A DNA stretch of 30,815 nucleotides from a virus. Positions 18,881-22,285 of this stretch are shown here, piece by piece. The stretch is from UHGV virus genome UHGV-0021747. One strand, given 5' to 3'. The notes below the pieces were generated by a model, which did not search any database, had not been told where the DNA came from, and saw only the letters and a program-made list of their open reading frames with translations. The stretch's first letter is position 1. Each line of letters opens with the position of its first letter. The position numbers and the translations under genes are program-made.

Positions 18881-20029
18881 TTACTTTGAAAAGATCGCGG
18901 CAAATCTATGGGAAACCTCGATGCTTTTTCTGTCGATGAGCAAATAAAAGATGTAAGAACATGCATAAAGCATCACCACTGATATTAAAACAGCTGATAA
19001 ACATGCGCTGGAGTCGCTCATGATTTTCCTTGATTCATGATAAACTGGCCCTGATAAGCAATAAAATACAGGCATTTGAATCAAGTATGCCGAGAATGAT
19101 AACTTTCCTAAAAAGACCATGATTTTTGATTCAGAAAACCATGACATAACCCCAATCTTACATAGGGAATATACCACTCCAATTCCAGATAATAGATTGA
19201 AAAGCAAGTATACATTTATTTTCTCAATGCTGTGAATAGATAATGAAAATTCTTTTAACCATGCGTAAAGATAATGATTATATTTAAATCCAGCCAAGTA
19301 AAGTGATGCAATAAGAATTGCATATCCAATAACCTTATTCTTATATGAACCGCATAAACATATAGCCATACCAAAAAGGAATGATGCGTACCCATATGCA
19401 TTTTTATCATTAAAGTTAATTATGATTAAAACTGCGATTAAAGATAATATTAGCGGTGCTTTTTTAATAAAGATAGAAATAGGAGATATCAAAAAGACAA
19501 GGAGAGAACCATAAAACTCAACCTGCATAGTCCATGTAACCATATTTATTGATGAGTCACCTTTGAGTATGGAGCCATATAGTGAGTTTTTTAAAACTCC
19601 TATCACAGATAAATCACCATCTTTACCCAATGACCAAATCCACGGAACCCAATACTTATTGAAAGGGAAGTAATTTACAACAATTGCGCAAATAATAATC
19701 GATGCCGAAACTGGTATTAATAATCTTACATACCTTTCTAGCAGCATCTTTGCGGACTTCTTAGATATACAACCAGACCTGAAAATAACACTTGTAAGTA
19801 TATATCCGCTTAATACAAAGAATATATATACAGCTGAAGTTCCAGAGTAAGTGAAGCCTATTGGTAAATCTCTTGTCACCGCATCAAAAGAAGACTTAAT
19901 TATCTTTGTGTCTCCAGTATGCAGGTAAGGGAAAAAAATTATTGATAGATGAGAAAGCACTACCATCAAGCAGGCCAACCCCCTCACACCCTCTACCGAA
20001 AGAACCTTGCCACCATCAATCTTATTCAT
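18881..20029 (-). CDS. Acyltransferase family 3 integral membrane protein (putative O-antigen/surface polysaccharide acyltransferase)
   Basis: 382 aa from ATG at 20029 (the supplied ORF extends to TTG at 20050). Multi-pass hydrophobic profile and an N-terminal ...GVRGLACLMVVLSHL motif typical of acyltransferase-3. Strongly AT-rich. Confidence 0.8.
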   Translation of the reverse strand: MNKIDGGKVLSVEGVRGLACLMVVLSHLSIIFFPYLHTGDTKIIKSSFDAVTRDLPIGFTYSGTSAVYIFFVLSGYILTSVIFRSGCISKKSAKMLLERYVRLLIPVSASIIICAIVVNYFPFNKYWVPWIWSLGKDGDLSVIGVLKNSLYGSILKGDSSINMVTWTMQVEFYGSLLVFLISPISIFIKKAPLILSLIAVLIIINFNDKNAYGYASFLFGMAICLCGSYKNKVIGYAILIASLYLAGFKYNHYLYAWLKEFSLSIHSIEKINVYLLFNLLSGIGVVYSLCKIGVMSWFSESKIMVFLGKLSFSAYLIQMPVFYCLSGPVYHESRKIMSDSSACLSAVLISVVMLYACSYIFYLLIDRKSIEVSHRFAAIFSK

Positions 20030-20192
20030 ATAATTTCCGTATATGCACAAAGTTAGTGTGCATTAATAAAAGATAATACCCCTACTTGCATAACAGATAG
20101 CACGTGTAACTAAACGCTGAGCAATCAGAGGTTTCCGTAATTATCTGAGTTTATCACTCAAATCTCTATTGATCGACACCACCGATCGACAA

Positions 20193-20229: not shown

Positions 20230-20621
20230 ATGGGATTACCGATCCCGGCTGCTGATTACGTTGAGAACCGCCTGTCGCTTGATGAGAGATTCATCCACAA
20301 ACCGTATGCTACCTACTACATGAAAGCGTCAGAGACAATCTATCGCTTCGGCATTATGAAAGATGCGCTGCTGGTCATCGACTCGTCGCTACCCACCCCC
20401 TGTGATGGCTCATTGCTGGTTTGTGAGTTTGTGAGATAGTGGGTGAGTTCAAGGTGAAGATTTACCGAACATATCCTCAGCTTCATCTTGAGAACGCACT
20501 GAACGGGCGAAAAGAAAAGTTGCCTTGTCACTTTGGCGGGATAGAGACGGTATTTGGGGTGATCACGTGCATCATCAACGATGCGCGTACAGGTGAGTTT
20601 GATGGCTACCCGCTGAAGTGA
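20230..20621 (+). pseudogene. umuD'/humD-like gene split by a frameshift (8-bp tandem duplication tttgtgag at 20420..20435)
   Basis: ORFs 20230..20439 and 20439..20621 together align with UmuD residues about 25 to 139 as recalled (PAADYVE..., GEFxVK, VFGVI). Deleting one repeat copy restores a single 129-aa frame. The GDSM catalytic motif is replaced by ETIY. Confidence 0.6.
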
Positions 20622-20630
20622 AAATAGTGT

Positions 20631-20928
20631 TGTGTACCAAATTGCGTACCAAACTAAAATCACAAATCATGAAACCCTTGTTCATGGCGGTTCTCAGGGG
20701 TATTGCGCGTAATCGTGAAAGAGGAAGGTAGGTTGTTTATCTGTGTCTGTCATTGTCTAGCATTGTCCACTGTAGTTAATTAACTGTCTGTTATAACTCG
20801 AAAAACAACCATTTTTTCACCTGAGTATGTCTACGAACGTCAAATATAGTTGTTTACTGTGCGCTGTTGTCCATGTGATATTGTGTACCAGATGTGTACC
20901 AAACCATTATTTCTGAGCGTACCAAATA
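20631..20928. other. Putative attP: five GTACCA(A/G)A arm-type repeats flanking a ~230-bp AT-rich core
   Basis: Repeats at 20634, 20647, 20885, 20896 and 20920, immediately upstream of int; typical of integrase arm sites. Confidence 0.45.
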
Positions 20929-20934
20929 TTATTT

Positions 20935-22113
20935 ATGGCTATAAGCGACACAAAACTGCGTACTATTTATGGTAAACCATATTCGGGCCCACAAGAAGTG
21001 GCTGATGCCGATGGCCTCAGCGTACGAATTTCACCGAAGGGGGTCATCCAGTTCCAGTACCGCTATCGCTGGCATGGCAAGCCTAATCGACTTGGGCTTG
21101 GTCGATACCCATCCCTGTCTTTGAAGGATGCCAGACAGATCACTGCTGACTTGCGAAAGCTCTATTTCTCAGGAACGGATCCACGCACCTATTTTGAAGA
21201 GAAGGTGGAGAACTCCATGACGGTCGCCCAGTGTCTCGACTACTGGTTCGACAACTACGTCTCTACAACTCTCAGAGAAAAGACCCAGGCACTTTACCGA
21301 TCAACGGTTATGAAGCGCATGCATGACGCCTTTCCTAATCGTCCGGCATCTTCTATCACGGTTAAGCAATGGGTTGACCTGCTTACCGAAGAAGAAAGAG
21401 ATAATCCACGCCGAGCAAGGCAGGTGCTAAGTCAACTAAGATCAGCAATAAGTTGGTGCATGCGGCGTCAGTTGATAGATAGTTGCGCAATTATGAGCAT
21501 CCAACCAAGGGACTTCGGCTCCCGCGCTGAGGTAGGGGATCGGGTACTGTCGTATCACGAACTGGCTAAGATTTGGCTTGCTATTGAAAGAAGCCGTGCG
21601 TCTACGTCAAATAAGCTCCTTCATCAGATGCTTATGCTGTGGGGGGCGAGGCTCTCAGAGCTTAGGCTGGCAACAAAGACAGAATTTGACCTGCTGGACA
21701 ACGTATGGACCGTACCGAAAGAGCATAGCAAGATGGGTAATGTTATCCGCCGTCCAATCTTCGAACAAATTAAGCCTTTTCTCGAAAAGGCCATGACAAC
21801 GTACAATGATGTTCTTTTCCCTGGAGAAGACATAAACAAACCGATCAGCATCGCTGCAGCCAACCGATTCGTAAATAGAATAAGGGGAGGGATGGATCTG
21901 GGTTACTGGCGAACACATGATTTCAGAAGAACGCTTGTTACACGTCTGTCCGAGATGAATGTCGAGCCTCATGTTACTGAGCGAATGCTCGGTCATGAAC
22001 TTGGCGGGATAATGTCCGTATACAATAAACACGACTGGATAGAGGCTCAGCGCAAAGCGTATGAGCTTCACGCTGATAAATTGTTCTGGCACATCAGGAG
22101 CATTTCTGATTAA
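20935..22113 (+). CDS. int: Tyrosine integrase (P4-like, N-terminal arm-binding domain)
   Basis: N-terminus ...DGLSVRISPKGVIQFQYRYRWHGKPNRLGLGRYPSLSLKDAR is the arm-type DNA-binding domain signature; C-terminus has HDFRRT...LGH...VYNKHDW catalytic motifs. Confidence 0.9.
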   Translation: MAISDTKLRTIYGKPYSGPQEVADADGLSVRISPKGVIQFQYRYRWHGKPNRLGLGRYPSLSLKDARQITADLRKLYFSGTDPRTYFEEKVENSMTVAQCLDYWFDNYVSTTLREKTQALYRSTVMKRMHDAFPNRPASSITVKQWVDLLTEEERDNPRRARQVLSQLRSAISWCMRRQLIDSCAIMSIQPRDFGSRAEVGDRVLSYHELAKIWLAIERSRASTSNKLLHQMLMLWGARLSELRLATKTEFDLLDNVWTVPKEHSKMGNVIRRPIFEQIKPFLEKAMTTYNDVLFPGEDINKPISIAAANRFVNRIRGGMDLGYWRTHDFRRTLVTRLSEMNVEPHVTERMLGHELGGIMSVYNKHDWIEAQRKAYELHADKLFWHIRSISD

Positions 22114-22285
22114 CGCCACCGTTAAGAATCCACCCTTCAACAGCTTCACGAAGGTATGATTTGGGGTGGGTTCTGACTGGCTTCGGAAATCCGTGTCGTT
22201 TGGTATAGTTCCAGATTGTCTGACGTGATGAAACACCGAGCTTGTTCATCACTTCTTTCTCAGGAATCAGGCTGGTATCGGTCAT
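22094..22285 (-). CDS. xis: AlpA-family excisionase / DNA-binding protein
   Basis: 63-aa protein with ...VSSRQTIWNYTKRHGFPKPV... resembling the AlpA helix-turn-helix; convergent with int and overlapping its 3' end by 20 bp. Confidence 0.65.
   Translation of the reverse strand: MTDTSLIPEKEVMNKLGVSSRQTIWNYTKRHGFPKPVRTHPKSYLREAVEGWILNGGVNQKCS

Follow-up and report, generated by a model that had tools for sequence, protein, structure and literature searches.

Heterobivalent integrases need arm-type sites that are distinct from the core. Lambda attP has two such sites on one flank of its short core and three on the opposite flank. [quoted passage not shown] In KplE1, PintS and arm-type sites of IntS overlap within attL, and both Int and the RDF act as repressors of int (PMC2951348). 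Finally, the 13-bp core CGTAATCGTGAAA has been published for Stx2c phage 2851 and Shigella phage Sf101 (PMC4159516), which, together with Stx phage 1717 and the lambdoid phages HK140, mEp234 and HK544, form the type 2851 group.

The locus described here lies in a 30,815-nt stretch of viral DNA (hereafter the window), and it has the same core and the same target, the 5′ end of sbcB, as the type 2851 phages, with an integrase 99–100% identical to theirs and all five repeats present. From ~20550 through int, the DNA is 93.6–98% identical to that of HK140, mEp234, HK544, APC_JM3.2, E212, EC.P3 and Sf101; HK140, mEp234 and HK544 show 97–98% nucleotide identity over this stretch, and their records annotate an attP of “type 2851”. 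Only the surrounding genome differs, being an Sf6-like (podovirus) mosaic here, in which the att–int module adjoins an acyltransferase gene and a truncated UmuD-like ORF. No record of the phage collection covers at least 80% of 8000–30815, the part of the window that was searched.

The locus also shares features with better-studied systems. As in KplE1, HK620 and Sf6, attP lies directly upstream of int, with the (here candidate) int promoter in the P′ arm, that is, in attL (PMC2951348), and attL is similar in size to that of KplE1, ~220 nt upstream of the ATG (PMC2951348). The KplE1/Sf6 systems differ in that they target the 3′ end of argW through a 16-nt core and carry their RDF gene beyond attP, whereas the RDF gene here lies downstream of int and is convergent with it. 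The integrases, moreover, are only 22% identical (Sf6 IntS), and we reject identity with the Sf6/KplE1 module on this ground, despite the Sf6-like backbone. With lambda, the locus shares a heterobivalent tyrosine integrase (a PDB sequence match to lambda Int) and the two-plus-three layout of repeats, but it differs in arm motif, arm lengths, the orientation of int relative to attP, and the absence of a strict IHF consensus from attP; the attB of lambda is, in addition, intergenic. With P4, it shares the N-terminal domain family, Arm-DNA-bind_3, of which P4 is the founder. The attP would work like those of lambda, P4 and KplE1, and is not tRNA-targeting.

Methodology

Attachment sites were compared in an alignment of the window, attL of E. 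coli 2013C-4991, attL and attR of prophage 1717, and the empty K-12 site, and junctions were read in 40 records spread over the matching E. coli genomes. Relatives with 40–100% integrase identity were drawn from annotated phages, from viral contigs, and from one genome per bacterial species, and ~50 distinct upstream regions were taken from relatives of ~50–100% integrase identity. Shuffled sequences (n = 100) were dinucleotide-preserving and spanned the whole 30,815-nt window. Promoter candidates are 8/12-type matches from a loose scan only. A literature search with the repeat motif and “integrase” returned only unrelated papers, the original phage 2851 paper lying outside its coverage.

Results and Discussion

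Identity of the Attachment Site

We consider it highly probable that 20631–20926 forms an intact, unintegrated attP belonging to the published type 2851; every testable feature of such an attP, namely the core, the integrase identity and the sbcB junctions, is found here. This kind of attP, its core and its target are already known, and the finding is real but ordinary. The coordinates of the features are collected in Table 1.

Table 1. Positions of the Attachment-Site Features and Adjoining Genes in the Window (the Arm-Type Role of the Repeats is Assigned as Argued in the Text)
Feature	Position	Strand	Sequence or size	Remarks
P1, left-arm repeat, assigned arm-type	20631–20641	+	TGTGTACCAAA	~−301 from int ATG in attP-form relatives
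P2, left-arm repeat, assigned arm-type	20643–20653	+	TGCGTACCAAA	12 nt after P1; ~−289 in attP-form relatives
Core (common sequence)	20708–20720		CGTAATCGTGAAA, 13 bp	identical in attP, attB, attL and attR
Phage-borne replacement sbcB 5′ end	20708–20753	−	MTDTDKQPTFLFHDY...	start codon 20753–20751
Candidate divergent promoter toward the sbcB start	20843–20873	−	TGGACA, 19 nt, TATATT	weak; loose scan only
Candidate int promoter	20853–20882	+	TTTACT, 18 nt, TGtGATATT extended −10 (20874–20882)	predicted, loose scan
P′1, right-arm repeat, assigned arm-type	20882–20892	+	TGTGTACCAGA	GTAC site of relatives at ~−50 (−46 to −57)
P′2, right-arm repeat, assigned arm-type	20893–20903	+	TGTGTACCAAA	11 nt after P′1; relatives ~−39 (−35 to −46)
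P′3, right-arm repeat, assigned arm-type	20916–20926	+	AGCGTACCAAA	23 nt after P′2; relatives ~−15 (−12 to −22)
Tyrosine integrase, P4/CP4-like heterobivalent type	20935–22113	+	392 aa	
Probable excisionase (RDF)	22094–22285	−	63 aa	convergent with int, 20-nt overlap

The sequence CGTAATCGTGAAA is common to the attP of the window, the sbcB attB of K-12, and the attL and attR of prophage 1717, and the alignment corresponds to a clean Campbell exchange in which attL consists of host-left and phage-right sequence and attR of phage-left and host-right sequence. The records of mEp234 and 1717 mark the same 13 bp as attachment site or insertion duplication. The core is not the ~230-bp segment that the original prediction had set between the repeats but is confined to the 13 bp, and it is off-center, with 54 bp separating it from the second left repeat and 164 bp from the first right repeat. 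Read from the alignment, attB carries GTTTC...GAAAC around GTAATCGT, while attP is without the left half, and inverted core-type Int sites around the 13-mer are not evident in attP. The IHF consensus WATCARNNNNTTR finds no match at 0 mismatches in 20600–20935; the Klebsiella and phi296 relatives have one IHF consensus match in the P arm.

For 2851, 1717 and many Stx phages, all recorded as prophages, similarity to the window begins abruptly at 20708. In the window itself, no break separates the P arm, core and P′ arm, just as in the free phages HK140, mEp234 and HK544, in agreement with the unintegrated arrangement originally proposed for this DNA. The sequence of the attP region is present in 587 of 5,426 complete E. 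coli genomes, usually as two places, and 38 of the 40 sampled records break at 20708 (query position 109), with sbcB annotated there; the other two hold one attR-side piece and one intact attP, respectively. The proposal that host genomes and prophage junctions would disclose the target is thus borne out on both counts, with sbcB as the host match and the sampled attL junctions breaking within it. Together with the domain architecture of the integrase, these junctions support the reading of the region as an attP with arm repeats beside a P4-type integrase.

We note that three E. coli chromosomes hold an intact attP, with three matching places per record. One of them is found in the chromosome of E. 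coli O157:H7 MB9-1 (2015095–2015435), and an intact attP of this type sits between a prophage tail-fibre/nleG7 region and an integrase. These cases are best explained by two tandem prophages that share the att system.

Probable Arm-Type Repeats and Their Conservation

A motif search of the window confirms five GTACCA(A/G)A copies upstream of the integrase, all on the plus strand, at 20634, 20646, 20885, 20896 and 20919; the positions originally given for the second and the fifth copy (20647 and 20920) were each one off, while 20634, 20885 and 20896 hold. The copies are packed into 293 nt (20634–20926), and the rest of the window contains only two more GTACCARA matches, both on the minus strand (17343 and 17907). 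The repeat unit is an 11-mer, which reads TG(T/C)GTACCA(A/G)A except in one copy, the fifth, where it reads AGCGTACCAAA. All five copies are intergenic, between a small ORF that ends at 20621 and the int ATG at 20935, with the right trio 8–53 nt upstream of this ATG and P′3 ending 8 nt short of it. The spacer (20656–20880), which had been described as AT-rich, is indeed below the window in G+C content, but only mildly so (39% vs 46.6%).

The comparison with relatives gives these repeats a fixed place. Three GTAC sites, at ~−50, −39 and −15 from the int ATG, are found in essentially every relative of at least 50% integrase identity, where they form invariant islands in otherwise diverged DNA in the multiple alignment; the trio is not clear in the two most distant relatives (48% and 40% identity). 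Two distal sites, at ~−300 and −288 and 12 nt apart, are present in every contig with the unintegrated arrangement and are missing from the attL junctions of the same groups, which matches the location predicted for sites of the P arm. The 12-nt spacing between P1 and P2 is the same in the Klebsiella, P27/phi296 and Hafnia phage groups, and the left edge of the core falls at −216 to −227 from the int ATG in almost all relatives, such that the whole attP geometry, both core edge and site positions, is conserved. The motif itself takes the form GTACCA(A/G)A in the 2851 group and in some groups of 66–74% identity, and (G/A)GTACA(G/T)A in the Klebsiella, P27/phi296 and Hafnia groups, with a mixture of both in some groups. 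The repeats lie on both sides of the core and are unrelated to it in sequence. Taken as a sequence-based assignment, the five repeats are almost certainly the arm-type sites of Int, two in the P arm and three in the P′ arm.

The only N-terminal position of Int that partly separates the motif classes is residue 39 (21049–21051), which is Q, R, L or N with GTACC-type repeats and T, A, S or N with GTACA-type repeats. This signal is weak and confounded by phylogeny, and we do not use residue 39 as evidence for a specificity determinant.

The same repeats might instead be operators for the excisionase (RDF), or for another regulator of int transcription or directionality. Three of the five are placed directly between the candidate promoter of int and its ATG, and no residue of the arm-binding domain clearly covaries with the motif variant; in addition, the KplE1 RDF TorI also binds within attL and represses intS (PMC2951348). 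We nevertheless judge this reading to be very unlikely, as two plus three direct repeats around the core, with 11–12-nt and 23-nt spacings, are the classical arm-type layout, as the distal pair lies ~290 nt from int, with no obvious role as an int operator, and keeps its position in every unintegrated relative, and as the integrase has a dedicated arm-binding domain that needs such sites. An origin by chance or from the composition of AT-rich intergenic DNA, in line with a G+C content of 37.7% in the region compared to 46.6% in the window, is refuted both by the shuffled windows (mean 1.25 GTACCARA matches, maximum 4, with 0 of 100 reaching the observed 7, 5 of which lie in 293 nt on one strand) and by the positions of the repeats, which are kept across relatives while the DNA between them has diverged.

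Integrase, Its Proposed Regulation and Neighboring Genes

The integrase has an Arm-DNA-bind_3 domain at residues 4–85 (E 8e-18) and a Phage_integrase domain at residues 204–366, with PDB sequence matches to the N-terminal domains of CP4-like integrases and to full-length lambda Int, and is 99.2–100% identical to the Int of EC.P3, Sf101, HK140 and Stx phages. If the repeats are arm-type sites, the Arm-DNA-bind_3 domain would bind the five direct TG(Y)GTACCA(R)A repeats, while the catalytic domains would bind the core and exchange strands within the CGTAATCGTGAAA shared with attB.

The position of the right trio also bears on the expression of int. The extended −10 element of the candidate promoter lies just before P′1, and the predicted transcription start falls inside P′1. 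The −10 stretch (CATGnnATATTG) is among the few segments other than the GTAC sites that are conserved in relatives of 59–100% integrase identity. A strict scan of 20400–21100 for sigma-70 promoters and terminators, on either strand, found nothing. Int bound to the three P′ sites, between the candidate promoter and the ATG, would probably repress its own gene, by likeness to KplE1 IntS, for which autoregulation has been demonstrated. With moderate confidence, and by analogy, we suggest that the int promoter overlaps arm sites and that int is autoregulated in the manner of KplE1.

In the case of the probable excisionase, matches to AlpA and HTH_17 are weak and below the Pfam cut-offs, and the homologues in mEp234, HK140 and Sf101 are annotated as excisionase-like or AlpA-family proteins. 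The plus-strand int and the minus-strand putative excisionase gene overlap at 22094–22113. Since the two genes converge and overlap, a leftward early transcript that crosses xis would continue through int in antisense, toward attP and, in a lysogen, into sbcB.

Beyond attP as seen from int, the minus strand encodes a 389-aa Acyl_transf_3 protein (18881–20050), placed between the attachment site and the tailspike-side genes, whose gene is likely a lysogenic-conversion gene, by analogy with the position of the O-antigen acetyltransferase (oac/oacB) of Sf6 and Sf101. A gap of 10 nt separates P1 from a preceding 60-aa ORF (20439–20621, plus strand), which has no Pfam hit. From ~20548, this ORF matches the 3′ end of the UmuD-like gene of HK140, and one record from E. 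coli gives the gene it matches as an S24 peptidase. The left mosaic boundary of the att–int module is marked by ~20548–20551, where similarity to all 2851-type phages starts.

The Host Target

The attB site corresponds to codons 13–17 (FHDYE) at the 5′ end of sbcB, which encodes exonuclease I (ExoI) and lies on the minus strand relative to the window. More precisely, the core covers codons F13, H14, D15 and Y16 and the first base of E17 of K-12 ExoI (MMNDGKQQSTFLFHDYETFG). In the attR of 1717, the P arm is joined to the native 5′ end of sbcB and its upstream region, adjoining dacD. With a protein-coding gene as the target, no 3′ end of a tRNA gene could be found in the core, which accounts for the failure of the original prediction to recognize one.

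That prediction had looked for the 3′ end of argW or thrW. A tRNA gene of this kind is the target in Sf6 and P22, and such a match could conceivably be too degenerate to be seen by eye, given that the phage backbone is Sf6-like, that Sf6 uses argW, and that integrase relatives of 50–57% identity adjoin argW. We give this possibility almost no weight, and reject a tRNA-gene target: ARAGORN finds no tRNA or tRNA fragment in the whole window, the core is identical to sequence within sbcB codons 13–17, all sampled E. coli attL junctions lie in sbcB, and the identity of the integrase to Sf6 IntS is low, as discussed above.

The RNase_T domain begins around FHDYETFG (the domain match in ExoI starts at residue 12), a segment that is constant in most of the genera examined. 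We take D15 and E17 of ExoI to belong to the Exo I active-site motif of DEDDh exonucleases, which would explain why the core DNA is so widely conserved.

The Replacement Start of sbcB

Integration at this position would remove the native sbcB promoter and the first 12 codons, and the phage would supply a substitute start (MTDTDKQPTFL), and presumably a promoter as well, leaving ExoI intact. To the right of the core, the window carries an imperfect copy of the preceding sbcB codons, with its own ATG at 20753; in the free phage, this replacement start opens only a 19-codon mini-ORF. Upon translation, the sbcB of lysogens reads MTDTDKQPTFLFHDYETFG, and RefSeq starts the gene at the phage ATG, giving 474 aa compared to 475 aa in K-12. 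The lysogen protein has full RNase_T and Exonuc_X-T_C domains, and the in-frame replacement start is kept in lysogens of >10 genera. Judging from these reading frames, lysogens keep an intact 474-aa ExoI thanks to the start that the phage supplies.

The native upstream region of sbcB is moved to the far end of the prophage, at attR, where it adjoins dacD. As integration separates sbcB from this region, its expression in a lysogen must rely on phage signals in 20754–20934. The sole promoter candidate found in the direction of sbcB is the weak minus-strand TGGACA/TATATT pair.

Targets across the Integrase Clade

Where int adjoins sbcB, the two genes are divergent, with starts 172–182 nt apart in most genomes and up to 244 nt apart in the most distant. 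This arrangement occurs in Escherichia, Buttiauxella, Erwinia, Chimaeribacter, Pantoea, Serratia, Rosenbergiella, Tatumella, Rahnella, Orbus, Gilliamella, Photobacterium and Parendozoicomonas, and the integrase clade as a whole seems to target mainly the 5′ end of sbcB. A variable, apparently element-supplied ExoI N-terminus, M-x5-8-QPTF(L/Y)FHDYETFG, is seen in at least 13 genera, its hosts being Enterobacterales, Orbales, Vibrionales and Oceanospirillales-like bacteria (one genome per species).

Two branches use other genes. The branch of 50–57% identity adjoins the 5′ end of the tRNA-Arg(CCU) gene argW and comprises P27/phi296-like Stx phages and prophages of Xenorhabdus, Proteus, Candidatus Erwinia dacicola and an uncultured gammaproteobacterium MAG. 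Its phage forms carry the first 24 nt of the tRNA, at ~−219 to −196 from the int ATG, which indicates that the element replaces the 5′ rather than, as is usual, the 3′ part of argW. In the Klebsiella branch, whose integrase is 61% identical, a DJ-1/PfpI-family gene is targeted at its 5′ end. The 11 nt of the host-side sequence there, GTTTCGTAATC, recur in the E. coli sbcB attB, and both genes encode D-Y-E-T at this place, which suggests target switching between the DJ-1/PfpI gene and sbcB through a shared core-type motif. From these sequence comparisons, the clade as a whole appears to target the 5′ ends of genes (sbcB, argW and the DJ-1/PfpI gene), which would be repaired with phage-borne starts; this is a modest finding, and one not obviously documented in the searchable literature.

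A broader proposal, which we regard as doubtful, is that the clade specializes in genes whose transcription leads away from int, entering them at their 5′ ends, and always brings both a replacement 5′ end and a promoter, such that ExoI would be run from phage signals in lysogens and the prophage could retune a host single-stranded DNA exonuclease. If this were true, the signals for ExoI would lie in the divergent region between int and sbcB, beside the Int arm sites, and the prophage could shift recombination and repair to its own advantage via ExoI.

Conclusions

The present analysis settles the annotation of this region as an attP, the host target of which is sbcB and not a tRNA gene. Beyond annotation, it provides a testable map of five probable arm-type sites, with a conserved two-plus-three geometry, and this arm-site assignment, together with targeting of gene 5′ ends across the clade, constitutes a small addition to a core and a target that were already known. 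For the phage, it means that the sequence is a free or vegetative genome, able to lysogenize roughly where the Stx2c phages of E. coli O157:H7 do.
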